Positions 6,537 through 62,160 of a stretch of 64,000 nucleotides of DNA are shown here, one piece after another. The stretch covers positions 2,526,152 through 2,590,151 of the forward strand of contig JADJBV010000002.1 of NCBI GenBank assembly GCA_016703535.1. Direction: 5' to 3'. The stretch is from Deltaproteobacteria bacterium. GTDB taxonomy: Bacteria; Myxococcota; Kuafuiibacteriia; Kuafuiibacteriales; Kuafuiibacteriaceae. How positions within the stretch are numbered: position 1 is the first letter of the stretch; the number at the start of each line of letters is the position of its first letter. The translations under genes and the position numbers were made by a program. The notes under the pieces were generated by a model. It searched no databases. It was not told where the DNA came from and saw nothing but the letters and a program-made list of their open reading frames with translations.

Positions 6537-6553
6537 GCTCCGAGGTGCCGGGT

Positions 6554-6952
6554 ATGAAAACCGCGGATCTACCAACTGGCCTTCGCGCCCCTCGGCTCGA
6601 GGAGATCACCCGCCTTCAGCGGCTTCATCGAGACGAGGTCCGCCCTCATGGACTTGCTCCCCCGACCTCCGAGGTCGATCGGGAGGAGGTCGCAGTCAAA
6701 CCTACTTCGCCTCCTTCGGGCGCTGAGCTCGAGGAGGCCCTCACCACGGTCAATCAGCACCAACAGGTCGTTCAGCAGTCCCTCCAATTTGAGGTCGACG
6801 CCGATCTGGATCGAACCGTCGTCAAACTGGTCGATAGTAAGACAGGAGAAGTGGTCCGGCAGATCCCCTCCGAAGAGCTGGTGGCGATCGCCAAAAGGCT
6901 CAAGGACTCCGGGAAACCGCCGGCCGGGCTCTTGTTCGAGACGGAGGTCTGA
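6554..6952 (+). CDS. flaG: FlaG-family flagellar protein
   Basis: The C-terminal LQFEVDADLDRTVVKLVDSKTGEVVRQIPSEELVAIAKRL is typical FlaG. It sits between flagellin and fliD. The start is at 6554 (ATG) or 6545 (GTG). Confidence 0.8.
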   Translation: MKTADLPTGLRAPRLEEITRLQRLHRDEVRPHGLAPPTSEVDREEVAVKPTSPPSGAELEEALTTVNQHQQVVQQSLQFEVDADLDRTVVKLVDSKTGEVVRQIPSEELVAIAKRLKDSGKPPAGLLFETEV

Positions 6953-8355
6953 TGGTCCGCGCAACAGGATTGGGCTCTGGCTTGGACGTCGAGGGGCTGG
7001 TCACTCAGCTGATCGCCGCCGAAGCCAACCCGCAGACCGTTCGGCTGAACCGAAACGAGACGGCGTTTCAAGCCAAGATCTCGGCTTATGGCGCCCTCCG
7101 CGGGGCCTTGACCGAGTTTCAGAACGCCCTCTCCGGTTTGAAGGATCTCACCTCCCTTTCGGCCCGGAAGGTGGTGATGTCCGACGACACCCACTTCGCC
7201 GCCACCGCCGGGGAAGAGGCAGTGCCCGGCGTCTACGAGGTCGAGGTGGTGAGTTTGGCCGAACCCCATCGGCTGATGTCCACCGGCGTGGCCACTCCAG
7301 CGACGGCGGTCGGCACCGGTACTTTGACCATCACCTCGGGCGCCGAGTCTTTTGCGGTCACCGTCGGCGCCAGCAACCAGACCTTGGAGGGGATCCGGGA
7401 CGCGATCAACGCCGCCACCGACAATGACTCGGTGGACGCCACCATCATCACTGTCGACAACGGCAGCGGCGGCAGTGAGTCCCGCCTGATCTTGTCCGCT
7501 CGGGAGACTGGGACCGCAAATGCAATCCAGGTTGCGGTCACCGGCGACGGCGACGCCAACAACACCGACGCCCTGGGGCTCTCCCAGTTGTCGTACACCA
7601 CCGGCGCCCAGAACCTGACCGAACAGCAACCGGCCGTGGATGCGGTCATCGAGGTCTACGGCCAGACCGTCACCCGCAGCACCAACTCGATCGAAGACGC
7701 GATCACTGGCGTCACCTTAGATCTGAAGGAGGCCGAGGTCGGCGCAACCACCACGGTGACCATCAGCCTGGACACCGGGAAGCTCAAGGACTCGATCAAC
7801 GGCTTCGTGAAGTCGTACAACACCCTCACCGCCAACCTTCGGAACCTCTCGAAGTACGACGCGGCCACCGGCAGTAAGGGCGCCTTGTTGGGTGACAGCA
7901 CCCTGCGGGCGGTCGACTCGCGCTTGCGCCGGATGATCGGCGAGGCCGCCGACGTGGACGGGGCCTTCAAGACCCTGGCTTCGATCGGGGTGAAGGTCGA
8001 CGACAAGGGCGTCTTGTCGGTGGACGCCGACGACCTGGACGCCGCCTTGGCCTCGGACTTCGCCGACGTCGCCACCTTGTTCGGCGCCGAAGAGACCGGC
8101 CTGGGCGCACGCCTCGACGAGATGCTCGAAGGATATACTGAAGGGAAGGGCATCATCCAGGCCCGGGTGGACGGCCTGCAGGCCGGGCTCAAAGACGTGG
8201 CCGACCAACGGGTGGCCTTGGAGCGCCGCATCGAAGGATTGGAGAGCCGCTTTCGGGCCCAGTTCAACGCGATGGATCAGATCGTGTCCCAACTCAGCTC
8301 CACCTCCAGCTTCCTCGCCGGTCAGCTCGCCAGCCTGCCGGGATTCGTGCGGTAG
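6952..8355 (+). CDS. fliD: Flagellar filament cap protein FliD (HAP2)
   Basis: N-terminus GLGSGLDVEGLVTQLIAAE...AKISAYGAL and a C-terminal FliD_C-like region (RFRAQFNAMDQIVSQL). The ATG overlaps the flaG stop (TGATG). Confidence 0.92.
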   Translation: MVRATGLGSGLDVEGLVTQLIAAEANPQTVRLNRNETAFQAKISAYGALRGALTEFQNALSGLKDLTSLSARKVVMSDDTHFAATAGEEAVPGVYEVEVVSLAEPHRLMSTGVATPATAVGTGTLTITSGAESFAVTVGASNQTLEGIRDAINAATDNDSVDATIITVDNGSGGSESRLILSARETGTANAIQVAVTGDGDANNTDALGLSQLSYTTGAQNLTEQQPAVDAVIEVYGQTVTRSTNSIEDAITGVTLDLKEAEVGATTTVTISLDTGKLKDSINGFVKSYNTLTANLRNLSKYDAATGSKGALLGDSTLRAVDSRLRRMIGEAADVDGAFKTLASIGVKVDDKGVLSVDADDLDAALASDFADVATLFGAEETGLGARLDEMLEGYTEGKGIIQARVDGLQAGLKDVADQRVALERRIEGLESRFRAQFNAMDQIVSQLSSTSSFLAGQLASLPGFVR

Positions 8356-8361
8356 CCACCG

Positions 8362-8673
8362 ATGAGCGCCGAGTTGCCCCCGATCTTTCGAGAAGCCCTC
8401 TCCCTCAACGGCGTGATCCGGGAGGTCGCCAAAACCGGCGACTTCGATCAGGTGTTGCGCCTGCTGGAGGAGCGCCAAGCGATGTTGGAGGAGGCCTTCT
8501 CCTTCGGCGTCCCTCCCGAGGTGGTGCCGCTGTTGCGCGCCGAACTCGACCACCTGCGCCAAGCCGACCAAGAGCTCCTGACCCTTTTGGAAGAGGCGCG
8601 GCTGGCTCTCCGAGAGAACCAACGTTCGCTCGACTTGGAACGCCGAGCTCAAGTGGCGTACGGCCGCGTTTGA
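8362..8673 (+). CDS. Hypothetical 103-aa helical protein between fliD and fliS (possible FliT-like chaperone, by position only)
   Basis: The ORF starts 7 nt after the fliD stop. Leu/Glu-rich helical composition; no motif recognised. Confidence 0.55.
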   Translation: MSAELPPIFREALSLNGVIREVAKTGDFDQVLRLLEERQAMLEEAFSFGVPPEVVPLLRAELDHLRQADQELLTLLEEARLALRENQRSLDLERRAQVAYGRV

Positions 8674-8713
8674 ACCCGGCCCAGAACGGCCGAACTCGAT
8701 TGCTGAGCCACCC

Positions 8714-9130
8714 ATGACCAACGGTTACAAGCAGGCCTACCGCTCCAACCAATTTACGGGCATGCCCCCCGAGCGCATCACCCTGGCGCTCCTCGACGGC
8801 GCCCTCGCCGAACTCGAGCGGGCCCAAGACGCCTTCGACCACAAGGACGTCCCCCTCCGGGGTGAGTCCATCGGCCGGGCCCTGGCGATAATCTGCGAAC
8901 TCCAGAACACCCTCGACCTGGAGAAGGGCGGAGAACTCGGCCAGAACCTCCACGGGCTCTACGCCTTCATGATCCGAGAGCTCCTGCAAGCCAACTTGAA
9001 GGCCGACGCCAGCAAACTCCCGGCGGTGCAGGTGCCCCTGAGAGAGATCCGGGACGGCTGGGCCGAGATGATCGCCGCCTTGATAAGGCCGGCCTCGGTG
9101 GGCAACGCCCCGATCAAAGCCTACCTCTGA
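8714..9130 (+). CDS. fliS: Flagellin-specific chaperone FliS
   Basis: YRSNQ...TGMPPERITLALLDGAL...IGRALAIICELQNTLDLEKGGELGQNLHGLYAFM is canonical FliS. Confidence 0.9.
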   Translation: MTNGYKQAYRSNQFTGMPPERITLALLDGALAELERAQDAFDHKDVPLRGESIGRALAIICELQNTLDLEKGGELGQNLHGLYAFMIRELLQANLKADASKLPAVQVPLREIRDGWAEMIAALIRPASVGNAPIKAYL

Positions 9131-9131
9131 G

Positions 9132-9482
9132 TCAGTCGTTCCAGTAGTGCTCGAGGCGATAGGTTGCGGGGCCCGGCGCCCCATAGACCACCACGTTGAA
9201 GTTGCCGCTGAGACTCGCCTGGAAAGTGCAAGTACGGACGTTGCCGCTGGTCATGCACGAAAGGCCTGAAACTGGGCTTCCGTAGACGGTCAGAGATGCC
9301 GTGCCGCTCAGGATCGTCATCCTAATCTCGTGGGTATAGCCGGACTGAGCGCTCTGGGTATAGCTCGCCCACTGGCCATAGTGGACCGTGCAGGCGCTGC
9401 ACACGACCTTGCCACCCGCGAACACGGTCGGGCTAATGCTGAGAAGGGAGAGGAGGAGGAGTACGGGGATGAATCTCTTCAT
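9132..9482 (-). CDS. Small secreted protein (116 aa), PPC (pre-peptidase C-terminal)-like beta-sandwich
   Basis: Signal peptide MKRFIPVLLLLSLLSISPTVFA, then a TASLTVYG...GNFNVVVYGAPGPATYRLE pattern. GC and codon usage are atypical (AGA, GTA, ATT, CTT). Confidence 0.65.
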   Translation of the reverse strand: MKRFIPVLLLLSLLSISPTVFAGGKVVCSACTVHYGQWASYTQSAQSGYTHEIRMTILSGTASLTVYGSPVSGLSCMTSGNVRTCTFQASLSGNFNVVVYGAPGPATYRLEHYWND

Positions 9483-9495
9483 GCCTTCGGGATAT

Positions 9496-9505
9496 CCCCC
9501 CCCCC
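9496..9505. repeat. Homopolymeric C10/G10 tract
   Basis: Ten consecutive C on the + strand (G10 on the coding strand), 13 nt upstream of the ATG at 9482 and 8 nt downstream of the subtilase stop. It is the longest homopolymer I saw in the window. Confidence 0.95.
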
Positions 9506-9513
9506 ATTTCAGG

Positions 9514-11456
9514 TCAAGGGAGGTCCTTCACGATGATGAGGGGACTCGATGAAGAGTAAGCTCCTGAGTCGGCCTCCACCTCGAAGTCGACTGTCGCCCA
9601 TTCGGTGTCGGTGGAGCTGAAAGGAAGCTCCTCCACCTTAATCGGGTCGGCGTAGAAGAGAGCCTCTTCATTCACCACCAGGTCGATGATCTTCTTGTCC
9701 TGGTTGAACGGCTTGATCACGATGGTGGGTTTTCTCAGCTTGCCCGCGTAATCGCGGTTGAGGTTCAGGTACGCCGCGAACACCTCCATCGGGCAGGTCG
9801 GACAGGCGATGCCGTCGGGCTGGGGCGTCGAGAAGGGCCGGGCGTGGTGGTTTTCGAGTTGGCTGGCGGGGCAGTCGTGGGTGCTGAGAGGGTCCAGGGA
9901 GTAGTATTGCCCGACGCAGGGGGCGAGGGCGGCGACCGGCTGAACGACGGGCTGGGTGCACTCCAGCGGTTGAATGCTCTGGGTGGTGATGTCCGGTCGA
10001 GCGTCCCGGAAGGCGCTGGACTTGGTGCATTGGGGGTTCGTGCTGGCGCCGAGCTGCTGCAGCTTCTTGAGCGTCCCGCAGATCGAGACCCGGGCCACGT
10101 TATTGTTGCAGTCGGGGGCGACGCAGAGCTCCCGCGTCAGTTCGACGCTCCGCCCGGGGAGCAGCACCCCGGCCTCCCTCACCAGCTTCATGACGTCGTG
10201 GGCGCCTTGGTTCGGTTTGTAGCGCCAGGCGATGGCCGCAGCGGCCGAGGCTACCGCCGACGCGACCGAACTTCCGGTGAAGACATCGGTGATCTCAGCG
10301 GCGCCATTGGAGATGCTGATGTGGCTGGCGGGGGCCACCAAAGGGGGCCGGCTCAGGGGTCGACGGTTTGGCAGCTCGGTGTCGCGTCCGTCGACACCGC
10401 CAACGGCGTAGACGATCCGCTGGTATGAGGTCGTGGGGACCGGAAGGGTCACGCCCGGGGCCAACGCCGAGCACTGGGCGACGGTCGGTGCGGCCTTGGC
10501 CTCCCACGCGCCGGGGTGGGAGGGGCCCATCGATGGGTTCGGGCCGTCGACTGAGTTGCCCGAAGCAGCGACGACCAAGGCGCCCTGGCAAACGGCGAGG
10601 CTGATCGCGGTGTAAATCGCTCGAATCGGGGGGATAGTTGATGGAGATCGTCGGCAGGGAAGTTGCCTCCGTAACGGGCCCCGTCCCACCCGACGCTCAG
10701 GTTCAGGACGGTCTTCCCGGGTTGGGTGGCGGCCGTGGCCATGGCTTGGTGGATCGCCAGGGCGAGGTCTCCGAAGCTCCCAAAACGCCCGCCGGTTGGA
10801 TCCCGGACGAGGCCGGTGGCCGACCTAATCAAGGGCAGAGCGAGGGTGTTGGCCACCTCCGCCGCGCAGGTTGGGCTCCCCGGGGGGCACGCCAGCTGAC
10901 GGACGATCATGCCGACCATCTTGCCGTGTTCGATCAGACCCTCGGCGGGGAACGGAAAACCGGTCTGTTCGGAGGAGTCGACGACCACCACCTTGGTCGG
11001 GGGCTGGCCGAGTGAGTTCGGCGTGGGCGTGGGGAGCGGGGCGACCGAGTCGACTTGGGCGCGAAAGGCGGCCTCCAACGCCGCCTGGTTCTCCATCGTC
11101 AGCTCCGTGGCGTGTGGAGTCACCACTGCGCAGTCGAGCTTCGGGGAGTCCAGGCCGAATCCCCAAGTCGGGAGCTTGGCGATCGCTGGCGGTCCGGAGC
11201 CGTACCAGGTGAACACGCAGTAGTTGGCGAGGTCGCCAGAGATGTCGCCATTGAAGAGGGGTTCGACGTGCCAAGCGCTATTCGGGATGGGAACGCAGGA
11301 CGATCGCTGAGGGGCGAAGCCGATGTAGCGGTCACCTTCGCAGGTCGCTAGCGGTGGATCGGCCATGGCGGTTCTGGCGGCCAGGCTGAAGCAGCCGAGC
11401 CCGAACAACCACAGCGGGGAGCGGAGAGGTCGATTGAGGATCATCGTTGTGGACAT
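9514..11456 (-). pseudogene. Subtilisin-like (S8) serine protease, reading frame broken at a G6/C6 run near 10628-10633
   Basis: ORF 10449..11483 carries the signal peptide, Asp (VVVVDS), His (EHGKMVG) and NLSVGW. ORF 9514..10689 carries Asn (VVAASGNS) and Ser (FTGSSVASAVAS). One extra C in the run would join ...DLHQLSP to PIRAIYTAISLAV.... Confidence 0.8.
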
Positions 11457-11505
11457 ATGAGGTGAGGGCCTGGTCCCTGACATGGGTGGGTGAAGGTTTC
11501 GTGGG

Positions 11506-14184
11506 CTATGGTGTAACTATTCGAAAGGACTGCCAATCCTCCGTGGATGCTTCTTCGGCGAGGCTCGCCACTGCGGCTTGGTAGGCGCGATCGATCGGGG
11601 CCGTCGGGGTCCGGTAGAGCGCCTCCACGAACCGCCGGGCCAGGCGGTCGGGGACCGGTCGGCTCGGGCCTACGATCCAACTCGCGCCCGCCAAGGCGAA
11701 GGCCTCGGCCAGGGCCACTTGGGGCGCCGTGCCCTCTCCCGGACCGGTCCCTTCGCAGCTCGAGAGGACGACGGTGGCCGGCGCTCGCGGTAAGGTCAGC
11801 AACTCTCCAGCGGTGAGGGACTGCGCGCCGGCGAGGAGGAGGGCGCTCTCCAGGCCCCCAGTGCTGTCCGTGACGCTATGGCCGGCGTAGTGGAGGTGAG
11901 AAGTCTGGGAGAGGGCTGCGAGCAGAGCGCTGCGGGTGGCCGAGGCGCCCGAGAGGAGCAGCACGGGACCCGACGCCTTGAGCCGATCGTTGAGCCAACG
12001 GCCCTCGTCCCTGGCCTCTGGCAGGTCTTCCCGAGGATCGACCGCGATCAGCGCGTTGCCTGAAACCGCTGCGCCAGCCTCAAGGCCTCCATCGACCGCG
12101 TAGCTCACGAGGTGCGTTGCAATAAGGGCCTGGCCCCGCCAAGGGGCGGCGTGGAGGTCCTTGGCGGCGAGGGGGCCGTCGAGGAGCAACTCGACGTGTT
12201 GGGTTCCAGAGAGCTCCTCCGAAAATGGCTCCAACAAGGCTCGCCCCAGGCCTGGAGGCGTGAAGTCCTCCGGAGCCAGCTCGACCCACGAGCACCGGGC
12301 GGCAGAGCGGGTCTGTGCACACGCCAGGTACCGCCTCGCGCTCTCCGCCGAATAGAGGAGAACCAAGCGGTCCGGTGGGAGCACCCCTGAAGCTTTGGCC
12401 CTCCCAGGCCTCACGATGGTCAAGGCGTTCTCCAGGAGGCCTCGCCGGGTGCGCAGAGCCGTCGCCTGCGCTTCGGCGGTCCGGGGCAACCGCTCACTTG
12501 CCGCGCCCCAGGAGGCGTCGAGGGCGGACTCCATGTTCCGCGTCGCGAGTCGATACTCCTCGACGACCGCGGCCCACCGAGCCCGGTCTTCAGGCGGCAA
12601 CGCTTCCAGGCGCGCCGTGGTGACGAGGACATCGTGCCTCTGAGCTCGCGCTTCCCGCGCGACGTTCATCGCGTCTTGGGCCCGGCCCTCCGAAAAGAGC
12701 AGCCTGATCTCTGCCCACGTCGCGCGTCGCCGCGAGGAGAGAAAGGAGGCGCGGCCCCCATCAAGGGCAAGGGCCACCGACTCGTCGCGGAGCACGGCGG
12801 CTGCGCTTCGATAGGCGGCGCGGGCCTCCTCCTTCCGTCCCAGGGGCGTCAGGGCGCTGGCGCGTCCGACCAGGGTGCGCCACACGGCCGAGGGGCTCGT
12901 ACCTCCCGCCTCTTGAGCCATGGTGTCGTAGCGTTCCAGGGCCTGCCCGGGTTGGCCTCGGGCCAGGGCTAGGCCGGCTTCCAGTTCCCTTAGCCACAAG
13001 CGGCGCTCGAGGGTGGCCTCGGCACCCAGCTGGCGGGCCTCTCGCAGTTGGGTCTCTGCGGCCGGGAGGTCGCCGGCCAGCAGTAGGAGGAGACCAAGGT
13101 TGATCGCGCTGTTCCCGGCCTGGTCCCGATCTGGGCAGGAGCGCCTGAACAAATCCTGCGCGGCGCGACCGGTCTCGATGGCTCGAGCCAGGGCTGCTTC
13201 TGTCCGCTCGTCATCGACGATCGACAGCCAAGTCAAGCCGCGCAAAACAGTCGCCTCGTTACATGGGTGCCTGAGCGTCATGTCGTGGTTGCGAAGACCC
13301 TCTAGGATGCGGCGCTGCTCTTGGTACCTGCCCTGGTCACCGAGGATGCGTCCTTCAAGAAGGGCTGCAGCCCAGTCGGTCTTGGCGCGCTCGACCCGCG
13401 ACGTCACTGCGCGCACGGACCTTATCGCGGTTTGGGCGGAACGAAGGTCGCCAGTGCGCATCGCTAGTGCGGCACGGTAATAGCGGTGGTGGATCGCGCC
13501 GAGAGTATCCTCCGGTAGTTGCACCGCCTCGACCTCGTTGAGGATCCGATCGGCCATCTTTAGGTCCCGGTCTCCGTCCACTGCCGTCTGGGCAATCGAG
13601 AGCTGTTCATTCACAGCGCGGGCGACTAGCCCTGCGCCCTTGGCGACCTCAACCGCCCGACCCCACTTCTCTCGGGCCTCATCGATCTCGCCTCGTCTCC
13701 CGTGAGCCGCGCCCAACTGCTTGAGGGCCTCCGCTGCTTCTCTCGGCTCCTTCGACTCCTTCAGCACCTCCCACTTCTCTTTGGCCTCGGCCTCTTTGCC
13801 TTCGCTCTGGAGGCGTTCGGCCTCTTTCATCAGCTCGGACTTTTCGTGGAGCTCGAGGGGCCAGCGGCGGCTGTCGATGCCTTTTCGGCGGGCCTCGATG
13901 ATCACCGCGCCGGCGGTGGCGGTGGCGATGAAGCGGGTTCGGTAGCCGTCTTCGTAGGGGTGGAACTTGACCGGCGAGGGGCCGTGGTCGGTCTTGATCG
14001 AGAGCTGGGCGCCTTCTTTGACCTTCACCCAGATCACAAGTTTGGTGGGGCCGTCGATCTCGCAGATCGGGCCCTTTCGGAGGTCCCGGCAGCCGACGAG
14101 CTCCAGGGTCTCGATCAGGTCCTCGGGCTTGGGTTGGCAGGCCGAGGTCAGGAGGACGAGCAATGGCCAGGGGGAGCGGCGCAT
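11506..14184 (-). CDS. TPR-repeat CHAT-domain (caspase-like) lipoprotein, 892 aa
   Basis: Lipobox MRRSPWPLLVLLTSAC, a long Ala/Leu/Arg-rich TPR-like middle, and a C-terminal CHAT dyad (HLHYAGHS and VVLSSCEG, followed by AFALAGASWIVG). Confidence 0.85.
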   Translation of the reverse strand: MRRSPWPLLVLLTSACQPKPEDLIETLELVGCRDLRKGPICEIDGPTKLVIWVKVKEGAQLSIKTDHGPSPVKFHPYEDGYRTRFIATATAGAVIIEARRKGIDSRRWPLELHEKSELMKEAERLQSEGKEAEAKEKWEVLKESKEPREAAEALKQLGAAHGRRGEIDEAREKWGRAVEVAKGAGLVARAVNEQLSIAQTAVDGDRDLKMADRILNEVEAVQLPEDTLGAIHHRYYRAALAMRTGDLRSAQTAIRSVRAVTSRVERAKTDWAAALLEGRILGDQGRYQEQRRILEGLRNHDMTLRHPCNEATVLRGLTWLSIVDDERTEAALARAIETGRAAQDLFRRSCPDRDQAGNSAINLGLLLLLAGDLPAAETQLREARQLGAEATLERRLWLRELEAGLALARGQPGQALERYDTMAQEAGGTSPSAVWRTLVGRASALTPLGRKEEARAAYRSAAAVLRDESVALALDGGRASFLSSRRRATWAEIRLLFSEGRAQDAMNVAREARAQRHDVLVTTARLEALPPEDRARWAAVVEEYRLATRNMESALDASWGAASERLPRTAEAQATALRTRRGLLENALTIVRPGRAKASGVLPPDRLVLLYSAESARRYLACAQTRSAARCSWVELAPEDFTPPGLGRALLEPFSEELSGTQHVELLLDGPLAAKDLHAAPWRGQALIATHLVSYAVDGGLEAGAAVSGNALIAVDPREDLPEARDEGRWLNDRLKASGPVLLLSGASATRSALLAALSQTSHLHYAGHSVTDSTGGLESALLLAGAQSLTAGELLTLPRAPATVVLSSCEGTGPGEGTAPQVALAEAFALAGASWIVGPSRPVPDRLARRFVEALYRTPTAPIDRAYQAAVASLAEEASTEDWQSFRIVTP

Positions 14185-14229
14185 TCGGCCCCATAGAAGC
14201 GCGAACGCCCCCCGGAGCCAACCCGCCGT

Positions 14230-14940
14230 TCAGCGCGGGCGGACGATCAACTTCACGCTCTTCGACTGCTGGTCAGCGTGGAGCCCGTCGGGGGCCTCGG
14301 GCAGCTGGCCAGGGCGGCCAACGACCATCACCACGGTGACCGTCCCGGTCTCGACCCCCAACAGCTGGGCCGGGGTGCCACGCCAACGAAGGGCGCCGTC
14401 GGGGGAGATCTCGGGCGCGGCGGCGATCACCCTGACCGTTGTTCCCTCCTCGAGGAACAGCCGCCCGGCCAACGCACCTTCGGCCGGTTGATCCGGGACC
14501 AACACCAGCTCGATGCGTGAGTCGGAGCGCACCGTCGGGGCCCGGGGCAGGTCTTCACTCCGGTACAAGGCGTCTTGGACCTGGGCGTTGACGGCATAGC
14601 TCGGCAACGGCGCGTAACGATCGGTCATCGCAAAGATCCCGATCATGATCGCGGCGGCCAAGGCCAACAGGCTGCCGACGATCGGCGCCTTCCGGAAGGG
14701 GAGGGTCCGAACCTCGGCCAAACTCCGCTCTGCGATCCGATCTTGGGTGGCCTCGCTGAGGGGCGCGTAGAGCTCCAGCGCTTCGGCCAACTTTGGGTCG
14801 ACGGCCGATCGGGCCAACAGTGCTTGTCGGGCCTCAGGGGACAGGCGACCCGAGGCATAGGCCTCCAGCTCGGCGTCCAAGGCTTGATCTTGTTCCGCCA
14901 TCAGCTGTGCCACTTCTTTCGGCAGCAGGTCATCGGCCAT
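14230..14940 (-). CDS. Single-pass anti-sigma factor (putative)
   Basis: The start at 14940 overlaps the sigma stop by 11 nt. It has an N-terminal helical cytoplasmic part, one TM segment (IVGSLLALAAAIMIGIFAM) and a C-terminal exported domain of about 120 aa. There is no Zn-binding HxxxCxxC. Confidence 0.7.
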   Translation of the reverse strand: MADDLLPKEVAQLMAEQDQALDAELEAYASGRLSPEARQALLARSAVDPKLAEALELYAPLSEATQDRIAERSLAEVRTLPFRKAPIVGSLLALAAAIMIGIFAMTDRYAPLPSYAVNAQVQDALYRSEDLPRAPTVRSDSRIELVLVPDQPAEGALAGRLFLEEGTTVRVIAAAPEISPDGALRWRGTPAQLLGVETGTVTVVMVVGRPGQLPEAPDGLHADQQSKSVKLIVRPR

Positions 14941-15589
14941 GAGCGTCCTCCGTGGCCAGTTCGTCTCTGAGCTCTCGGACCAATCGGGAGAGGCGGCTCC
15001 GCCAGGCGTAAAGGGCGTCCGGTGAAGTCCCGGTACTTTGGGAGACCACATCAACTGATTGGTCCTCTATGTATAGAAGTTGAAAGAACTGACGTCCCTT
15101 CGGGCTGAGGCGCTCCCGGAGGCGGTCCGCCAGCTGCGCCAGAAGCTCTCGGGAGGCGACCAGCTCTTCGTGGCTGGCCGAGCTGCCCCCCAAACGAACG
15201 ATGGTGTCGGTGAGGGTGGGATCTTCGGTCCAGGGGTTGCGCTTGCCGGTGCGCATGATCATCCCTACCTCGCGCTCGGCCAAAAATCCGACAAAACGTT
15301 CGAAGGAGAGCCCCCGGGCCTGATCCCAGGCCAACAGCGCCCGTCCCTGGTGCGCCAGCAGCGCCGCGAAGACCTCCTGCATCAGGTCCTCCAGCTCTTG
15401 CCGGGTGTTCCGGCCCCGGGAAGAGCTGGCCCTCCGCAACAAGGTCCTCGCCACTCGCGTTTGAATGACGGGCGTCAGCGCCGCCACCAGCCCGCGCATC
15501 GCCGGTTCGTCGCCCGCCAAGGCCCGCTTCAAGTGGGCTTTGATCGTGTCCTCGGACGCAGACGACAACTCCAAGACCTCGGCGCGCAT
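14930..15589 (-). CDS. ECF-type RNA polymerase sigma-70 family factor
   Basis: 219 aa. Region 2-like LMQEVFAALLAH...FERFVGFLAERE and region 4 HTH LSPKGRQFFQLLYIEDQSVDVVSQSTGTSPDALYAWRSRL. The upstream part of ORF 14930..16387 is a GC artefact overlapping the astacin gene. Confidence 0.85.
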   Translation of the reverse strand: MRAEVLELSSASEDTIKAHLKRALAGDEPAMRGLVAALTPVIQTRVARTLLRRASSSRGRNTRQELEDLMQEVFAALLAHQGRALLAWDQARGLSFERFVGFLAEREVGMIMRTGKRNPWTEDPTLTDTIVRLGGSSASHEELVASRELLAQLADRLRERLSPKGRQFFQLLYIEDQSVDVVSQSTGTSPDALYAWRSRLSRLVRELRDELATEDAHGR

Positions 15590-15711
15590 CCACCGCTGAA
15601 CATAAGGGTGCCCGATCGACTCCGCAACTCGCGCGCCGAGGATTTCGCGTGTTGTCCGAGGGATGTCAGATCCTACCGATGGTCCGCATATCAGTGAAGA
15701 CCGAGCTCCAT

Positions 15712-17343
15712 TCAGTGGAGCAGTTGCGCCTCCAGGCTGCACCACGGGGCGTTGCTCTGCCAGTCGGTGCCCAAAAACTGCCCCGATTCGCTGGCCAGAT
15801 CGACCCACTTCAGGCCGCTCTCCACGTGGTGGCAGACCCAGTCGTCGCGCCCGTCGTTGTTGACATCCCCCACGAACAAGCGGGACCCGCCGCTGGTGCA
15901 CCAGTTGTTGGCGACGGCCCAGTTGGATCCGCCGAACTCGCCGTCCAGGTTGGCGTAGTCCAGGTGTTTGTCGCCGGTGCGCGGGTCGTAGCAAAACAGA
16001 TCGTCTCGTCCGTCGCCGTTGTAGTCGCCGACGATGATGGTCCGCGTTTCGGCGCCATTGCACCAGCCGCCGGCCCGGGTCCAGTCGTAGCCGCCGAACT
16101 CCCCGCTGGCGTCGGCGTAGTCGATGCCTTGGCTGCCGGTCGCGAAGTCGTGGCAGTAGAGGTCGGCCCGCTGGTCGCCATTGAAGTCGCCCACGAACAC
16201 CCGCTGGCGGTCTTCGTTGCAGAAGCTGGCGTTGGCGCGGCTCCAGTTGGTCCCGCTGAACTCTCCATTGGCGCCCGCGTAGTCGATGAACTGAGCGCCG
16301 CTGATGAAGTCGTAGCAGAGCAGGTCCTCTCGCCCATCGCCGTCGTAGTCGCCGATCAAAAGTTGCCGGGTGTCGCTGGCGGTGCACCAGGCCGCGCTGC
16401 TCGACCAGTCGGTGCCGCCGAAGGTGCCGCTGTTGTTGGCCCGGTCCACGAAGCGGGCGCCGCTCAGCTGATCAAAACACAGAAGATCGGTCCGATCGTC
16501 GCCGTTGAAGTCGCCGGTGAAGAGCAACCTCCCTTCGGTGGTGTTGCACCAGCCGCTGGGGCTGACCCAGTCGCTGCCGTTGAACTGTCCGCTCCCAAAA
16601 GCGCGATCCAAATACAAGGTGCCGCTCGAGGTGTGGTGACAGAGGAGGTCCACCTTGCCGTCCAAGTTGAAGTCCCGGAGGTGAGGATCGTCGGCGTTGG
16701 GCGGCCCATACAGCCGTTCGGTGCCGACCCGATCGGTGGCGCTGAGTTGGCTGGCGTTGGCGCAGTAGCCCATGATCGAGTCGAAGTCGTAGGGCCCAAA
16801 GACGTGGGTGCTGTCGGGGCCGAGAAGATCTCCCGGGCACACCTCGGGGCTGTCCCAACGTTGATGTTCATGCCCGTAGCCCAAGACGTGACCGAACTCG
16901 TGGAGGGTGGAGGCCACGATGCAGGCCCTCCGATCCAAATTGTTGGCCGTGCAGCGCGGCCGCCACTCGTGCACGTTGTCGTTGAAGTCTACGTACACTT
17001 CCGTCAGTGGCCCGCCGTCGTAAGCGGCGCTGTACGCTCCGCCGATCTCGATGACCACGCCCTGGGCGCCCGGAGCACATTCACCCCAGCCGACGAAGTT
17101 GAGGTTGGCGCTCCGCATCCAAGAGCGTTGACCTCGCAGCGCCTCTCGGACCCAGCCCTTTTCGGTCGCGTAACCTGCGGTCAACCAACACACCGGGATC
17201 TCGCGTTCCGTCCGGAGGATGGCCGCCTCGTAAAAGAGGTCCTGGGCCGAGGTCCCCAGGGGCTCGGGGCTGGGCGAGGCGTCGGGCCCGCAAGCCCAGA
17301 GCAGGGTCAGGGGCCAAAGGGCCCAGCGGGGGAGCAGCTTCAT
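15712..17343 (-). CDS. Astacin-like (M12A-type) zinc metalloprotease lipoprotein fused to a six-repeat FG-GAP/VCBS-like beta-propeller
   Basis: Lipobox LTLLWAC; HEFGHVLGYGHEHQR (HExxHxxGxxHE) plus a SIMGY Met-turn. Six repeats of about 49 aa follow, each with GD(F/Y)NGDGRxDL(L/F)C and a W..x..WC. Confidence 0.85.
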   Translation of the reverse strand: MKLLPRWALWPLTLLWACGPDASPSPEPLGTSAQDLFYEAAILRTEREIPVCWLTAGYATEKGWVREALRGQRSWMRSANLNFVGWGECAPGAQGVVIEIGGAYSAAYDGGPLTEVYVDFNDNVHEWRPRCTANNLDRRACIVASTLHEFGHVLGYGHEHQRWDSPEVCPGDLLGPDSTHVFGPYDFDSIMGYCANASQLSATDRVGTERLYGPPNADDPHLRDFNLDGKVDLLCHHTSSGTLYLDRAFGSGQFNGSDWVSPSGWCNTTEGRLLFTGDFNGDDRTDLLCFDQLSGARFVDRANNSGTFGGTDWSSSAAWCTASDTRQLLIGDYDGDGREDLLCYDFISGAQFIDYAGANGEFSGTNWSRANASFCNEDRQRVFVGDFNGDQRADLYCHDFATGSQGIDYADASGEFGGYDWTRAGGWCNGAETRTIIVGDYNGDGRDDLFCYDPRTGDKHLDYANLDGEFGGSNWAVANNWCTSGGSRLFVGDVNNDGRDDWVCHHVESGLKWVDLASESGQFLGTDWQSNAPWCSLEAQLLH

Positions 17344-17533
17344 GCCCCTCCTTCGCCGCGCGGGCGGGAGATCTGACCCGAGGGCCTGCGGTGTCCAGGT
17401 AGCACCAAGTGGGAGCGACCTTCCGCCCCGGTAACGCGGCGGCGCCAAAAGCCCCAACAATTCGTTGGAACCCGAGTTGCGACAGGAAACGCCCAACGGT
17501 GGGGCCCGCTTATCGGCCTCCCAGAGGATCTCC

Positions 17534-19582
17534 ATGACCCAAGCCCGCGCGTTTCGCCCCGAAGACATCCGCAACATCGTCCTGCTCGGCCACGGAGGTT
17601 CGGGCAAGACCACCCTCGCCGAGGCCATCCTGCACAAGACCCACACCATCACCCGCATGGGTTCGGTCGACGACGCCTCCTCGGTCAGCGACTTCGAACC
17701 CGAGGCCAAGGCCCGGCATCACTCCACCAGCTCGACCGTACTTTTTGCGCACCACGAAAAGCGCGAGATCAACATCATCGACACCCCGGGCCACCCCGAG
17801 TTCATCGGCGCGCCCCTTTCGGCCCTCACCGCCGTCGAGACCGCGGTGATCGTGGTCGGCGCCACCACCGGCATCGAGCTCAACACCCGCCGACTCTTTC
17901 ACGCGGCAGGTGAAGCGGGCTTGGCCCGGATGATCGTCATCAACAAGATCGACTTGGCCAAGACCTCCCTCGAGGCCCGAGTGGCCGAACTCAAGGAGGC
18001 CTTCGGCGATCGCCTGCACTGCATCAACCTCCCCAGCCAAGACGGCACCGACGTCATCGACTGTTTCGACAAAGAGGGTGGGCAGGCCGACTTCGGTTCG
18101 GTCGAAGCGATCCATCGGGAGATGGTCGAGGCCACGGTGGAGGTCGACGACGCGGCCCTCGAGAAGTACCTGAGCGAAGGGAAGATCGATCTCGCCGAGC
18201 TGAAGAAGACCTTCATCCGGGCCATGAGCCTTGGCCAGGTGGTGCCGGTCTTGTTCACCAACGCCAAGGCCGGCGTCGGCGTGGAAGATCTGCTGCACAT
18301 CTTGGTGGAGGAGGCCCCCAGCCCCGTCAGCGGTCGGCCGCGGCGGCTCAAGAAGGGCGACACCTTGGTCGAGCTCGCCTGTGATCCGGACCAGCCGTTT
18401 TTGGCGCAGGTCTTCAAGGTGGCCAACGATCCGCACCTGGGCGCCCTCGCGATGTTGCGAGTGCTGCAGGGCAAGATGGACGGCAGCACGCCGTTCATCG
18501 CGGGGGACGAGGGCAAGGCCAAAAAGGCCAACCACGTGCTCAAGGTCGAGGGTCGTGATCATCCCGAGCTGGAGGCGGTGGCCCAGGCCGGCGACATCGT
18601 GGCCATCGCCCGGGCCGAAGACGTCCACGTTGGGCAGCTGCTCCGAGATCCTTCGATCCCGCCGGGCTTCGCGGCCTTGCCGATGGCCGCGCCCGTCCCG
18701 ATGTTGTCGTTGGCCATCGCCGCCAAGAAGAAAAACGACGAGGTGAAGTTGGGCGCAGCGGTGCAGAAGATCCTGGAAGAGGATCCAACCCTGAAGGCGA
18801 CCCAAGATCCGGTCAGCCACGAGCTGGTGTTGAGCGGCATCGGCGACGTGCACCTGGCGGTGGCCCTGGAGCGCCTCAAGAACCGCTTCCACCTGGAGGT
18901 GGAGTCGAAGCGGCCCAAGGTCGCCTACAAAGAGACGGTGCTGGGCCGGGCCGAGGGCCACTACCGCCACAAGAAGCAGACCGGCGGCGCTGGACAGTTC
19001 GCCGAGGTCTACCTGCGGATCGAACCGCTCAAGCGCGGTGAGGGGCGGGTCTTCGCCAGCGAGGTCTTCGGCGGCGCCATCCCGACCCACTTCATCTCGG
19101 CGGTGGAGAAGGGTGTGGAGGATGGCCTCAACGAAGGCGCCTTGGCCGGCTTCCCGGTGCAGGACGTGAAGGTGGTGGTCTACGACGGCAAGTCCCACGC
19201 CGTCGACAGCAAGGACATCGCCTTTCGGACCGCCGGGAAGTTTGCGGTGCGGGACGCCTTGCAGAAGGCTCGGCCGGTGTTGCTCGAGCCGATCGTCTCC
19301 TTGGAGATCACCGTGCCCGAGCAGTTTTTGGGCGACGTCACCGCCGATCTCAAGCACGTGCGGGCCAGGCTTTTTGGCGTCGAGCCCGCCCAAGCGGGGC
19401 ACAGCCTGATCCACGCCGAAGCGCCGATGGCCGAGCTGGGCAACTACGCCAGCCAACTCCGGAGCCTCACCGGTGGCCAAGGCAACTTCACCATCGCGCC
19501 GGCCCACGAGGACTTCGTGCCCCTGCCGCTGCAGCAGAAGATCGTCGCCAGCCGACCCCAAAGTGGCGGGTCCGAGGTCTGA
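17534..19582 (+). CDS. Elongation factor G paralog (divergent G1 motif)
   Basis: NIVLLGHGGSGKTTLAEAIL, DTPGHPEF, NKID, and domains II-V recognisable to the end. ATG at 17534. Confidence 0.85.
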   Translation: MTQARAFRPEDIRNIVLLGHGGSGKTTLAEAILHKTHTITRMGSVDDASSVSDFEPEAKARHHSTSSTVLFAHHEKREINIIDTPGHPEFIGAPLSALTAVETAVIVVGATTGIELNTRRLFHAAGEAGLARMIVINKIDLAKTSLEARVAELKEAFGDRLHCINLPSQDGTDVIDCFDKEGGQADFGSVEAIHREMVEATVEVDDAALEKYLSEGKIDLAELKKTFIRAMSLGQVVPVLFTNAKAGVGVEDLLHILVEEAPSPVSGRPRRLKKGDTLVELACDPDQPFLAQVFKVANDPHLGALAMLRVLQGKMDGSTPFIAGDEGKAKKANHVLKVEGRDHPELEAVAQAGDIVAIARAEDVHVGQLLRDPSIPPGFAALPMAAPVPMLSLAIAAKKKNDEVKLGAAVQKILEEDPTLKATQDPVSHELVLSGIGDVHLAVALERLKNRFHLEVESKRPKVAYKETVLGRAEGHYRHKKQTGGAGQFAEVYLRIEPLKRGEGRVFASEVFGGAIPTHFISAVEKGVEDGLNEGALAGFPVQDVKVVVYDGKSHAVDSKDIAFRTAGKFAVRDALQKARPVLLEPIVSLEITVPEQFLGDVTADLKHVRARLFGVEPAQAGHSLIHAEAPMAELGNYASQLRSLTGGQGNFTIAPAHEDFVPLPLQQKIVASRPQSGGSEV

Positions 19583-19693
19583 GTCATAACGCCCACGCCC
19601 GGGCCTGGGGCGAGACCGAACAGCGGGTAAATACCGACGATTTTATCGGGTTTACGCCTATCGACGGCCCGCCCTCCAGGTGGCGGACGGCAG

Positions 19694-21310
19694 ATGGGAG
19701 GGTTCCCAAGGGCCCGAACCTCGGTCAACGTAGCGAACTTGGGCACTCAGCTGGGTCAAAAGGCGTCGGCCCCGTGGAGCCTCGTCGCGATCGCGATGTC
19801 GGCCGGGATCTTCGCCTGCGAGGGCAACATCCGGGATCGAAACCGCGGGGTGTCGGGGGGCCGGGACGCTGCGATCCTGGACATCAACCTCGACGCCTCA
19901 CTCCTCGATCAAGGGACGGTGCCGGCTGACGCGGGCGAAGGTCCACCGGACGCGGGCCCCTTCGATGACGCCTCGCTCCCCCCCGACGCTGGCCCCGGCG
20001 TGACCGGTGCTTGCCGCGACGGCCTCGACAACGATGGCGATGGCCTGATCGACCTGGACGACCTGGGCTGCACCTCGGCCCAAGATGGCACCGAAGGCGG
20101 CTTGCCGAACGGGACCATCGAAAACGAGTGGACCGTCTTCGAGCCGGCGGCCGACACCCGGATGATCTACGTCAGCCGTTCGGTCGGCAACGACAGCTAC
20201 GACGGCCTCGCGCCCGAACCCAGCGGCGGCAACCGGGGCCCGAAGGCCACCTTCGCCGCGGCCCGAGGGCTGGTACGCGCCGGCGGCGCCGACTGGTTGC
20301 GCCTGCGCCGGGGCGACAGCTGGAGTGAAGATCTTCGACCGGGCACCTTGTCGGGGCGTTCAGCCACTGAACCCACGGTGATCGCGCCCTACGGCGTCGG
20401 CGCGTTGCCACGGATCACCGCCGACGCTTACTTCTCGGAGAACAACGCGCGGTTCATCGCCTTGTTGGGCATCGACTTTGGCTCCGGCGCGGTGGTGGCC
20501 AACGGCAACGGCGTGAACCACATCCTCATCGAAGGTTGCCGCTTCGCTGGCACCCCTTTCAGCGCGATCGTCTTGTCCGGTCGCGCCAACTTGTCGATGA
20601 ACACGATGGCGGTCCGCAACAACGTCATCAACTCGACCGGCGACAACGCCACCTACTTCGTCAGCGTCACCGGCGCCTTGCTCGAGGGCAACCTGATCTA
20701 TCGGCCCGCCACCAACAACGGCTCCAACCACGCGATGTACATCACCCGCACCGGCAACTCGGGCTACGTCACCCGCAAAAACCTGATCTACATGGGCAAG
20801 CCGGGGGGCATGGGGATCATGCAGCGGGCCGGCGGGATCTCGGAGCTCAACGTGGTGGCCGACGTCGGTGGCATCGCCATCCCTATGGGCGAGTGCAACG
20901 ACGAAGGTGGCCCCGGCGCCGGCCCTTGTTTTGCGCCGGTCCAGGTCACCATCCGCAACAACTTGATCGCGGGGATCCGCAGCGACGCTTCGGCGGGCAT
21001 CGGCATCTTCCTCAAAGATCCCTACGTGGCCTCGGGCGTCGTCGAGCACAACCTGGTGGCCGACTCCCGCCGTGGTGACTTTCAGTTGGTGGACGAGGTG
21101 GTGACCAACAACAACCGCCGAGTTTCGGCGCCCTACGTCGGGGCACCCGCGGGCGCGACCATGCTCGAGGCCTACCACGCCAGCTTGGGCGGCTCGGGCA
21201 ACGCCCAGCAGTTTTTTATGGAGGCGATGGCCAACCTCCGCTTCCACGACGCCAACCCGGCCTACCAGGCCCAGGCGATCATCGACTTCGCCCAGAGCAA
21301 AGTTCAGTAG
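19694..21310 (+). CDS. Secreted right-handed beta-helix repeat protein with an N-terminal Asp-rich Ca-binding-like motif
   Basis: Hydrophobic WSLVAIAMSAGIFAC, CRDGLDNDGDGLIDLDDLGC, then repeated NxxIxG/NNxI beta-helix-like turns. The start is uncertain. Confidence 0.7.
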   Translation: MGGFPRARTSVNVANLGTQLGQKASAPWSLVAIAMSAGIFACEGNIRDRNRGVSGGRDAAILDINLDASLLDQGTVPADAGEGPPDAGPFDDASLPPDAGPGVTGACRDGLDNDGDGLIDLDDLGCTSAQDGTEGGLPNGTIENEWTVFEPAADTRMIYVSRSVGNDSYDGLAPEPSGGNRGPKATFAAARGLVRAGGADWLRLRRGDSWSEDLRPGTLSGRSATEPTVIAPYGVGALPRITADAYFSENNARFIALLGIDFGSGAVVANGNGVNHILIEGCRFAGTPFSAIVLSGRANLSMNTMAVRNNVINSTGDNATYFVSVTGALLEGNLIYRPATNNGSNHAMYITRTGNSGYVTRKNLIYMGKPGGMGIMQRAGGISELNVVADVGGIAIPMGECNDEGGPGAGPCFAPVQVTIRNNLIAGIRSDASAGIGIFLKDPYVASGVVEHNLVADSRRGDFQLVDEVVTNNNRRVSAPYVGAPAGATMLEAYHASLGGSGNAQQFFMEAMANLRFHDANPAYQAQAIIDFAQSKVQ

Positions 21311-21317
21311 CGGTCCT

Positions 21318-22940
21318 TCAGGGCCTGAGGCCGAGCCACTTTTGTTGGGCCCTCTGCTCGAGGTGGCGGGTCAACTCCATGATCCGCCGGTGGCCTGGAT
21401 TGGCCGCCATTTGGGCCTTGATCCGGGTGTAGTCCCGGGCCACCAAGCTGCTGCGGCCCACCCAACGATCCAAGGTCCGGAGGGCCAGATCTTGTTCGGC
21501 CGGGGACAGGTACAGGATCTCCGCCAGGTGGGTGAGGCCCGGCGCCGTCAGGTTGAAGGTGTCGTTGTTGGGGCCCAAGGTGATTCGGCCCCCGGTCCAA
21601 GGATCCCACTCGCCGTAGATCGCCAACACCCGCTCGGCCCGGGTCCGGAGGCGCTGGTCGACGTTGCGCATGGTCGTTGGATCCAAGGACGGCTCTTGGC
21701 CCCAAGGGTTGGGCGTGAGCGGCGCGGGCGGGAGGGCGTCGAAGTCGACGCCGATCAAGGCCTGTTGCAGCTCGGCCAGGAAGTCGACCGATGGTCCCCC
21801 CAGCTCCCGAGCGACTTGGTAGTAGTAGGGGTTGAGTTCGGGGTCATAGGCCCCCTGCTCGAAGTAGGCCTCGGGCGAAAACGGGAAGATGCTGGCCAGG
21901 TCCTCGATGCCCAGGCCCCGGGGCGGGAGTTGGGTGCACAACTCGGGGCTCGCCGAATACTGCCAAAAGCCCCAGCGCCAGCCGAGGGCGGGGTAGAAGC
22001 TGAGGATCTCCAGGGCCTCTAGGCTGTAGTTGTTGGCCCGAGGATCCGTGGCCAGGTGGTATTCGGCCAACTCCGCCCGTCGCTCCACGGTCTCCCGCTC
22101 CAGGTCGACGATCCGCTCCCGGCAGGCGCCGTCGCTGGGCCCGATCTGGGCCAAGAAGGCGGCGTAGCGGGTGTCGAGCCCGAAGCTGATCGGCGCCACG
22201 TAGGGCACGATCCCGGCGAGATCTTGCGGGTGGTAGTGGTGGTGGAAGATGGCGGTCATCCCGCCTTTGCTGTAGCCCGAGCCGATCCAAGGCCCGCCGT
22301 AGATCGCGCTCAACAGCGTGACGATCCGGTGCGAGTCGGCGGCCGATTGGACCACGGTCAGGAAGTCCCACCTCGGAGACGCAGCGATCGACTCGCCGAA
22401 GAAGCGGTGTTCGACGGTCAGTTGATTGGCCTGGAGCGCCACGGTCGGTTCGATCTCCGAGGACGTAAACTCCATCGGATTGCCGAAGAGGCCGTAGCCG
22501 GTGGTGTGGAGGACCATCGGCGCCGTTTCACTGCGGTGGATCAAGACCAACCGTTGATCGAAGGTCGGCCCTTGGGGATCGTTGTGGTCTTCGGGTTGGC
22601 GAAAACGGAGGAGGAAGGCCCGGGTGCCCGGCAAGCTAGCTTGCACTTCCTGGACCCTTAGCCCCGGGATCCCGCGCAGGGCCTGGAGGATGTCCCTCGG
22701 CGGTGGAGGTTCGGCGTCCAGGATCCCCATCTCCGGGACGCCTCGATCCCTGACCCCCCGATCACGGGCGGGACCGGCGTCCGGAATCAAGAACCCGTTG
22801 TCGGTGAACTCTTCGGGGCCTCCGTCGGTGGGGCCGAAGATCGGCGCCCACGGGCCCCCGAGGCCCAAGCCCCCGACCTCGGCCTCTCCACACGCGAGCA
22901 GGGACCCGGTCAAGAGGAGGGCCGACCACCGAGGGGACAT
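21318..22940 (-). CDS. Secreted alpha/beta-hydrolase serine peptidase, S37 (PS-10 tripeptidyl aminopeptidase)-like lipoprotein
   Basis: Lipobox LLLTGSLLAC and nucleophile elbow GSGYSKGGMTA. The family assignment is from memory only. Confidence 0.6.
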   Translation of the reverse strand: MSPRWSALLLTGSLLACGEAEVGGLGLGGPWAPIFGPTDGGPEEFTDNGFLIPDAGPARDRGVRDRGVPEMGILDAEPPPPRDILQALRGIPGLRVQEVQASLPGTRAFLLRFRQPEDHNDPQGPTFDQRLVLIHRSETAPMVLHTTGYGLFGNPMEFTSSEIEPTVALQANQLTVEHRFFGESIAASPRWDFLTVVQSAADSHRIVTLLSAIYGGPWIGSGYSKGGMTAIFHHHYHPQDLAGIVPYVAPISFGLDTRYAAFLAQIGPSDGACRERIVDLERETVERRAELAEYHLATDPRANNYSLEALEILSFYPALGWRWGFWQYSASPELCTQLPPRGLGIEDLASIFPFSPEAYFEQGAYDPELNPYYYQVARELGGPSVDFLAELQQALIGVDFDALPPAPLTPNPWGQEPSLDPTTMRNVDQRLRTRAERVLAIYGEWDPWTGGRITLGPNNDTFNLTAPGLTHLAEILYLSPAEQDLALRTLDRWVGRSSLVARDYTRIKAQMAANPGHRRIMELTRHLEQRAQQKWLGLRP

Positions 22941-62057: not shown

Positions 62058-62160
62058 CCACCCCAAGCGACACCCTCCGAACAAAGCAGGTCAGATCGAC
62101 GGGCCTCACCTCGAAGCAGTGGGTGAGGCCGGCCTGGACCGCGCCCCCATCGGAGATCCA

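Follow-up and report, generated by a model that had tools for sequence, protein, structure and literature searches.

The window analysed here is a 64,000-nt stretch of contig JADJBV010000002.1 from a deltaproteobacterium of the phylum Myxococcota (G+C about 66%), in which six open reading frames (ORFs) follow each other head to tail on the minus strand at positions 9132 to 17343 (Table 1). Four of these genes make up an envelope-signalling cassette that is conserved in two phyla and has apparently not been described before. They encode a divergent sigma factor of the extracytoplasmic function (ECF) type, a single-pass membrane protein that is the candidate anti-sigma factor, a lipoprotein with a TPR solenoid and a caspase-like CHAT domain, and a predicted secreted subtilase of family S8. 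Conservation and gene order of the cassette, the catalytic residues of its proteins, the fold, one natural gene fusion, and a shared motif with its positions were computed directly. We lean towards reading the cassette as a split form of the protease-gated ECF switch represented by DdvA of Myxococcus xanthus, with the secreted subtilase as conserved output and further exoproteins as lineage-specific outputs, here including an astacin-like lipoprotein.

The six ORFs were delimited by ORF listing and translation. From the astacin gene to a small ORF of 116 amino acids (aa), the gaps are 122, −11, 45, 22 (or 61), and 31 nt. This agrees with an earlier note on the same DNA, which had described six same-strand genes spaced by −11 to 123 nt; the ORFs are real. 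Among the domain calls of that note, the propeller (as FG-GAP), CHAT, and subtilase held. The astacin call is marginal in Pfam, the sigma hits are below the cutoffs, and the anti-sigma candidate has no family hit. The label “PPC-like” for the 116-aa ORF is unconfirmed because no Pfam family matches at E ≤ 0.01, and the resemblance is a loose pattern seen by eye.

Contigs of close relatives were found via homologues of the CHAT protein; loci are designated L001, L002, and so on. In L001, L003, and L004/L005, the astacin, sigma, anti-sigma, CHAT, and S8 genes lie between a gene similar to elongation factor G (EF-G) and fliS. L002 has sigma, anti-sigma, CHAT, and S8 and lacks the astacin gene, and L007, from a distant Polyangiales metagenome-assembled genome (MAG), carries the four genes in an unrelated context. 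A scan with the sigma alignment over 185,579 species, each represented by a single genome, gave 199 relatives, the best 80 of which were analysed; these 80 loci belong to Myxococcota and Acidobacteriota. Neighbours were counted with custom hidden Markov models on six-frame ORFs, and 63 of the 80 loci were informative, i.e., had enough downstream DNA. Next to sigma, the anti-sigma gene is present in 58 of these 63 loci. CHAT comes next on the same strand in 46, S8 follows CHAT in 37, and all four genes are found in 34. The earlier note had named random juxtaposition as an outcome that would refute its proposal; for these four genes it is not borne out, as the order sigma, anti-sigma, TPR-CHAT, S8 recurs across both phyla. 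Carriers in culture include strains of Pyxidicoccus, Polyangium, Chondromyces, and Haliangium.

The two outer genes behave differently. The astacin/FG-GAP gene is present in L001, L003, L004, and L005 and absent from L002 and from all 80 GTDB loci. A homologue of the 116-aa ORF occurs in one of the four close-relative loci (L001), and one weak match lies downstream of S8 in L074. Because the astacin gene is in no distant locus and the small ORF has a single weak match, the conserved unit comprises four genes and not the six proposed before. The astacin/FG-GAP gene is a lineage-specific accessory and the 116-aa ORF is sporadic; both are local additions outside the conserved module. As they are not conserved with the core, the combination of three exported protease classes, which the earlier note had pointed out, is particular to the lineage of the window.

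Individual MAGs carry several paralogous modules (L011/L012/L017 in one MAG, L015/L067/L071 in another). In L012 (4788–11351), one CHAT gene lies between two sigma/anti-sigma pairs, and in L071 (11431–16057), CHAT and S8 are present as fragments only, resembling decayed copies.

The sigma factor scores below the cutoffs of the Pfam families Sigma70_r2 (18.4 bits) and Sigma70_r4_2 (20.9 bits) and of TIGR02937 (31.2 bits, cutoff 42.9). By its match over residues 13–205 to 9isn_F, an ECF sigma factor of solved structure (E = 1.5e-6), it is probably a divergent ECF member. We found 594 homologues at E ≤ 1e-8, the closest being from uncultured “delta proteobacterium”/Myxococcota MAGs. In this family, the linker between the sigma-2 and sigma-4 regions carries the nearly invariant stretch [KR]R[NS]PW[TK]E[DE]P, a possible group signature. 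Neighbourhoods with CHAT or S8 do not come up in the main text of the paper on ECF classification.

The ORF of the anti-sigma candidate and the sigma stop overlap by 11 nt, and the former is translationally coupled to the sigma gene. The protein has one strong transmembrane (TM) segment at about residues 87–105. Its structure model comprises four N-terminal helices, the TM helix, and a C-terminal periplasmic immunoglobulin-like (Ig-like) beta sandwich. The predicted local distance difference test (pLDDT) is 74 for the model and 85–91 for the sandwich, with an alignment of 5 sequences; the homologue search gave 5 proteins only. In the cytoplasmic part, there is no Cys and no His here and in most homologues. 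No Pfam family matches the protein, a single-sequence search of the PDB returned nothing, and structure comparison gave generic Ig-like fold matches for the periplasmic domain and no match to an anti-sigma domain. The protein is assigned as a putative anti-sigma factor from its gene context.

In the model of the TPR-CHAT lipoprotein (pLDDT 84.9), the lipoprotein signal is followed by a beta domain (residues 24–114 in the model), a long TPR solenoid, and the CHAT domain. The His–Cys dyad H769/C810 is kept in 62 of 63 homologues and the pair Cys32/Cys41 in 59 of 63; the lipobox and the conserved Cys pair predict that the protein is exported. Its top fold match is the cryo-electron microscopy structure of M. 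xanthus DdvA (8rot_A, E = 5e-15), followed by separases and the Craspase protein Csx29, whose chains match at E of about 1e-13 to 1e-10. In a profile search against the PDB, DdvA (8rot_B) was the only CHAT sequence match. The single-sequence search returned TPR designs only, and the profile was needed to reach DdvA; the two proteins are 16% identical in the structural alignment. At L060 (Haliangium MAG, 10573–14139), anti-sigma, N-terminal beta domain (N-beta), and TPR-CHAT are encoded as one ORF of 1189 aa with S8 after it. This is a natural fusion linking the anti-sigma and CHAT proteins.

The S8 gene is broken in the window, where the overlapping ORFs 10449–11483 and 9514–10689 lie in different frames. 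The cause is a 1-nt deletion at 10628–10633 (CCCCCC in the window versus CCCCGCC in L001), which may be a real mutation, i.e., a pseudogene, or a sequencing error. The gene is intact in all relatives (616–647 aa), and with one base restored the window encodes an S8 protein of 643–656 aa that scores 32.9 bits with Peptidase_S8 (cutoff 21.8). The triad and oxyanion Asn (D169/H186/N310/S406) are kept in 50–51 of 51 homologues and are encoded in the window too. The subtilase is thus predicted to be secreted and catalytically competent, and its secretion signal and large C-terminal region suggest release from the cell.

Regions upstream of the sigma genes share the bipartite motif TGTCAGA-N15-GC(A/G)(T/A)A. 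A weight matrix was built from 17 instances and applied at a threshold of 16 bits, with shuffled sequence as control. In the 80 loci, 111 sites reach the threshold, versus 2.9 in shuffles; their orientation is fixed, and they lie 30–80 nt upstream of start codons. S8 is the gene most frequently preceded by the motif (within 350 nt upstream in 22 of 45 loci with S8). The motif also lies upstream of anti-sigma in 22 of 58 loci, within the last ~50 nt of the sigma gene, and upstream of sigma in 15 of 80. Of 50 further sites, several precede genes for diverse proteins with export signals (tyrosinase-like, trypsin-like, unknown). Both its spacing and its −10 element of the CGT/CAT type are in line with ECF promoters at large, and we infer that the motif is the promoter of this sigma factor.

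Three sites in the window reach 16 bits (0.13 expected from shuffles). The copy before the astacin ATG is found at the same position in L001, L003, L004, and L005. The strongest copy, in the gap between the astacin and sigma genes, points away from sigma, antisense into the 3′ end of the astacin gene and in the same direction as the EF-G-like gene, and is kept in L001–L005. In L002, without the astacin gene, the strongest copy lies ~250 nt upstream of the divergent EF-G-like gene and faces it; hence, this gene may be a present or past target of sigma. At the CHAT–S8 junction, the window has an off-consensus copy, and the relatives score 24.5 (L003), 22.1 (L002), and 14.8 bits (L004) at the same position. 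This copy is the probable S8 promoter, and the true start of S8 is therefore probably at 11444. Since the motif precedes S8 in many loci and the astacin gene in the lineage of the window, the earlier suggestion of sigma-controlled exported proteases is plausible.

A classical autoregulatory GGAAC/CGT-type promoter was not found upstream of the sigma gene in the window; the motif copy there points the opposite way. The idea that the motif in the sigma 3′ ends is spelled with the rare AGA codon was dropped, as it lies in another frame in 29 of 30 cases. Scans of the six-gene cluster for sigma-70 promoters and terminators gave nothing above chance. Further motif copies in the window, at 1537–1568 (minus strand, 16.8 bits, inside ORF 1114–2109) and 62087–62118 (plus strand, 14.4 bits), have no clear target gene.

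In the switch that we favour, the TPR-CHAT lipoprotein would use its invariant N-terminal beta domain to dock on the Ig-like domain that the anti-sigma factor exposes in the periplasm, and the TPR-CHAT part would sense a protein cue. Proteolysis would begin the destruction of the anti-sigma factor, with CHAT as the site-1 protease or as the one licensing it, and intramembrane cleavage would follow. The freed sigma factor would then transcribe from the TGTCAGA-N15-GC(A/G)(T/A)A promoters. Its targets would be the subtilase gene, in many genomes the anti-sigma–CHAT genes (feedback), and lineage-specific secreted proteins, here including the astacin/FG-GAP lipoprotein. For who cleaves whom, the docking, and the cue, the model follows DdvA and classical regulated proteolysis by analogy.

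The closest known system is DdvS/DdvA of M. xanthus, an ECF sigma factor and an anti-sigma factor with a fused periplasmic TPR-CHAT part; DdvA has a cytoplasmic CHCC zinc-binding anti-sigma domain and controls an adjacent CBASS/CRISPR-Cas defence island (PMC11506125). Both systems belong to the same phylum and pair an ECF-type sigma factor with a single-pass anti-sigma factor (here putative) and a periplasmic TPR-CHAT part of the separase/Craspase type with a His–Cys dyad, and the fused architecture is found in the relative L060. Here, however, anti-sigma and TPR-CHAT are separate genes 45 nt apart, and CHAT has its own lipoprotein signal and an extra N-terminal beta domain. The anti-sigma candidate lacks the CHCC zinc site and has an Ig-like periplasmic domain, and a dedicated S8 subtilase belongs to the unit. 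The predicted promoter, TGTCAGA-N15-GCRWA, differs from the DdvS promoter GTAA-N16-CGT, and the locus adjoins flagellar genes and an EF-G paralogue instead of CBASS/CRISPR genes.

In Craspase, the TPR-CHAT protein Csx29 cleaves Csx30 bound to an ECF sigma factor (RpoE) within a type III-E CRISPR system with Cas7-11/gRAMP (PMC10028731). The fold match and the gating of an ECF sigma factor by inhibitor cleavage through a TPR-CHAT protease, here proposed, are common to both, but Craspase is cytoplasmic, RNA-guided, and CRISPR-linked, whereas the CHAT protein here is predicted to be exported. No Cas7-11/gRAMP or CRISPR was seen among the called neighbour genes, for which no dedicated CRISPR-array scan was made. 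RseA/DegS/RseP is the classical case of regulated intramembrane proteolysis of an ECF anti-sigma factor. It resembles the present locus in a single-pass anti-sigma factor encoded with sigma, a periplasmic protease as likely trigger, and sigma promoters in its own locus. The difference is that the candidate trigger here is an operon-encoded caspase-like Cys protease on a TPR scaffold, with a second, secreted serine protease as the conserved output.

The earlier note, which knew of no described system with this composition, therefore needs qualification. DdvS/DdvA and Craspase are precedents for a CHAT-gated sigma switch, and the split form with a dedicated subtilase was not found. Full-text literature searches returned these two systems and no description of a sigma/anti-sigma/CHAT/S8 unit, with incomplete coverage that makes this absence of evidence only. 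The ~200 loci from species-representative genomes of two phyla suggest that the CHAT-gated ECF switch is, in its split form, much more widespread. The conserved secreted subtilase and the predicted promoter offer an experimental handle with a readout by reporter fusion.

Several observations weigh against the switch as we read it. At 17 of the 63 informative sigma loci, there is no CHAT gene directly downstream, and S8 is absent at 9 of the 46 CHAT-bearing loci. The anti-sigma candidate matches known anti-sigma domains neither in sequence nor in fold and lacks the zinc ligands of DdvA. In the window, the S8 gene is frameshifted and its motif copy is off-consensus (12.3 bits); the strongest motif copy faces away from the operon, and no strong copy is found ahead of sigma or anti-sigma. 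Ahead of the sigma gene, inspection of the alignment gave only one weak candidate resembling a sigma-70 promoter, TTGCGG-N17-TATGTT, and a strict sigma-70 scan gave none. Moreover, the source paper on DdvA (PMC11506125) still treats its autoproteolysis as a hypothesis.

The cassette is highly polymorphic among close relatives. Judging by their flanks, L001, L003, and L004 come from one species: identity is 99–100% for EF-G, FliD, and sigma and 98–100% for the flanking DNA, and synonymous divergence (dS) in the flanks is 0.014–0.03. On the same contigs, however, the CHAT proteins are 47–61% and the S8 proteins 48–69% identical. The drop in identity has sharp borders, starting just past the CHAT N-beta domain and ending at the S8 stop. 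The N-beta domain is 100% identical in amino acid sequence, whereas the TPR/CHAT parts are 34–58% identical. Inside the variable block, DNA identity is 40–75%, dS is 1.0–1.36, and the ratio of nonsynonymous to synonymous divergence (dN/dS) is 0.23–0.55. The window belongs to a different species (flank dS ~0.5–0.6), yet has the allele class of L001 (CHAT 86%, S8 91%, dS ~0.4). Against the same partners, identity is 86/60/46% for CHAT and 91/68/48% for S8, with sigma at 91–100%. The astacin gene shows a second, milder mosaic (78–93% aa identity among the conspecific contigs).

With N-beta, sigma, and anti-sigma constant and TPR-CHAT and S8 divergent, the locus is therefore, as far as these alignments go, a constant transducer (sigma, anti-sigma, CHAT N-beta) joined to an anciently polymorphic TPR-CHAT/S8 cassette. 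By the same comparison, the cassette alleles are older than the species. The evidence comes from one species, represented by three or four contigs assembled from public reads; a metagenome scan for further conspecific alleles gave one short contig of 100% identity and no new allele. Such a constant transducer with a variable sensor–protease cassette suggests how specificity may be organised, and the natural allele variants could be used to test what periplasmic CHAT proteases sense, a question that is open for DdvA. Bacillus comQXP and Staphylococcus agr are signalling loci with specificity groups (“pherotypes”). In their polymorphism only, they are alike: a hypervariable block of sensor and secreted or processing functions with sharp borders, conserved transduction genes flanking it, and alleles older than species. 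The proteins and the signalling chemistry are entirely different, and a secreted protease as signal is a conjecture here.

One reading of this polymorphism is non-self recognition or protease signalling that is specific to the strain, in the manner of pherotypes; the secreted subtilase would then be both the output and the cue acting on the cognate TPR-CHAT protein of the same or neighbouring cells. In such a positive loop, sensor and protease would co-evolve as matched alleles, and the circuit would answer only kin or only foreign variants. The joint variation of TPR-CHAT and S8 as one sharply bordered cassette beside a sigma factor that stays at 91–100% speaks for it, as do a dS of ~1 inside versus 0.02 in the flanks, the allele class common to the window and L001 across the species boundary, and the sigma-type motif that S8 has of its own. 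Co-variation may, however, be plain linkage of neighbouring genes, several alleles are known from one species only (three or four contigs), the mean dN/dS is below 1 (0.23–0.55), and 9 of 46 CHAT loci lack S8. We consider this reading unlikely, and put the broader idea that matched ancient TPR-CHAT/subtilase specificity alleles on a constant transducer serve protease-based self/non-self or kin communication in Myxococcota and Acidobacteriota at the same low level. Hypervariable sensors are also typical of defence loci, and the variability could instead be the trace of an arms race, with a periplasmic TPR-CHAT sensor that detects a phage protein and a sigma factor that switches on a defence response, like DdvS/DdvA. 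DdvA is indeed the closest structure, and its authors propose that TPR-CHAT senses a phage-associated protein (PMC11506125). PADLOC, however, gave no credible match for any of the six proteins (one marginal match for sigma to a 1TM “Effector” model, E = 0.0038, 15 bits), and defence genes (CBASS, CRISPR, or other) were not seen beside the module in the window or the inspected relatives. The motif predicts secreted proteases and further exported proteins as targets, and it is unlike the GTAA-N16-CGT of DdvS. An anti-phage or anti-invader sensor is thus distinctly improbable.

The roles of the two proteases could also be reversed, with the subtilase as site-1 protease for the anti-sigma factor and CHAT as regulator or maturase, or the circuit could be a housekeeping loop for quality control of subtilase export or maturation, as sigma-E is for outer-membrane proteins. 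In ECF systems, the site-1 protease is usually a serine protease such as DegS or Prc, S8 is the gene most often preceded by the motif, and CHAT and S8 are adjacent in L009 even without sigma. Yet the natural fusion joins the anti-sigma factor to CHAT and not to S8, S8 is missing from some CHAT-bearing loci (the 9 of 46 noted above), and its signal and C-terminal region point to release from the cell; we regard this arrangement as quite unlikely. That the six genes are merely a chance neighbourhood of independent exported proteases and a sigma/anti-sigma pair is hardly credible. In its favour, neither the astacin gene nor the 116-aa ORF is conserved beyond the closest relatives, and there are no promoter or terminator calls above chance that would divide the genes or join them. 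The order of the four core genes across two phyla, the common promoter motif, and the gene fusion contradict it for these genes, and it could hold only for the two outer ones, astacin and the small ORF.

Table 1 Features of the locus in the window (positions count from the first nucleotide of the window; residues refer to the TPR-CHAT lipoprotein)
Feature	Position	Strand	Evidence or remark
Secreted Cys-containing protein, 116 aa	9132..9482	−	Signal peptide; G+C at third codon positions 78.6% (coding-like)
Hypervariable cassette (TPR and CHAT domains, S8, small ORF)	9132..13842	−	Comparison of conspecific contigs
S8 subtilase, predicted secreted, frameshifted	9514..11444 (ORF call to 11483)	−	Peptidase_S8
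Off-consensus motif TGTCAGG-N15-TCATA	11453..11484	−	12.3 bits; CHAT–S8 junction
TPR-CHAT lipoprotein, 892 aa	11506..14184	−	Pfam CHAT 75 bits, TPR, lipobox LTSAC
N-terminal beta domain of the CHAT protein	13843..14121 (residues 22–114)	−	Structure model
TPR solenoid	residues 117–591		
CHAT caspase-like domain	residues 606–892		Dyad H769/C810
Single-pass membrane protein, anti-sigma candidate, 236 aa	14230..14940	−	Adjoins sigma; one TM segment
Divergent ECF-type sigma factor, 219 aa	14930..15589	−	Weak Sigma70_r2/r4_2/TIGR02937; match to 9isn_F
Strongest motif copy TGTCAGA-N15-GCATA	15662..15693	+	24.5 bits; in the astacin–sigma gap
Astacin-like metzincin and FG-GAP repeat lipoprotein	15712..17343	−	Pfam, zinc site, lipobox LLWAC
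Motif GGTCAGA-N15-GCGAA	17349..17380	−	16.8 bits; ends 8 nt before the astacin ATG

In Pfam, the product of the astacin gene scores 74 bits with FG-GAP_3 and 22.0 bits with Astacin (cutoff 22.5). The zinc site HEFGHVLGYGH at residue 148 and the Met-turn SIMGY at residue 189 are present in all four homologues. Together with the lipobox, these motifs confirm the protein as a predicted astacin-like metzincin lipoprotein.

The flagellar set FlaG/FliD/FliT/FliS adjoins the cluster at 6545–9130 on the plus strand; FliS was assigned by Pfam on the window protein, and FlaG, FliD, and FliT from Pfam hits of the homologous genes on syntenic relative contigs. On the other side, the EF-G paralogue is divergent from the cluster (17534–19582, plus strand; 6197–8242 in L002) and scores ~740 bits with the NCBIfam “elongation factor G” models. 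In L002, an insertion of ~8 kb (14882–22639) lies between S8 and fliS in place of the small ORF; its products are a 7TM-transglutaminase, an ATP-grasp and a TPR protein, and four unknown proteins.

In Acidobacteriota loci, a motif-preceded gene family is found downstream of S8. It has no Pfam match and carries the N-terminal signature ERAHFKALVLKNPNYFGN; its members lie in L038 (7911–10250), L053 (19360–20553), L079 (16561–17508), L080 (16338–16721), and L040 (16787–17065).

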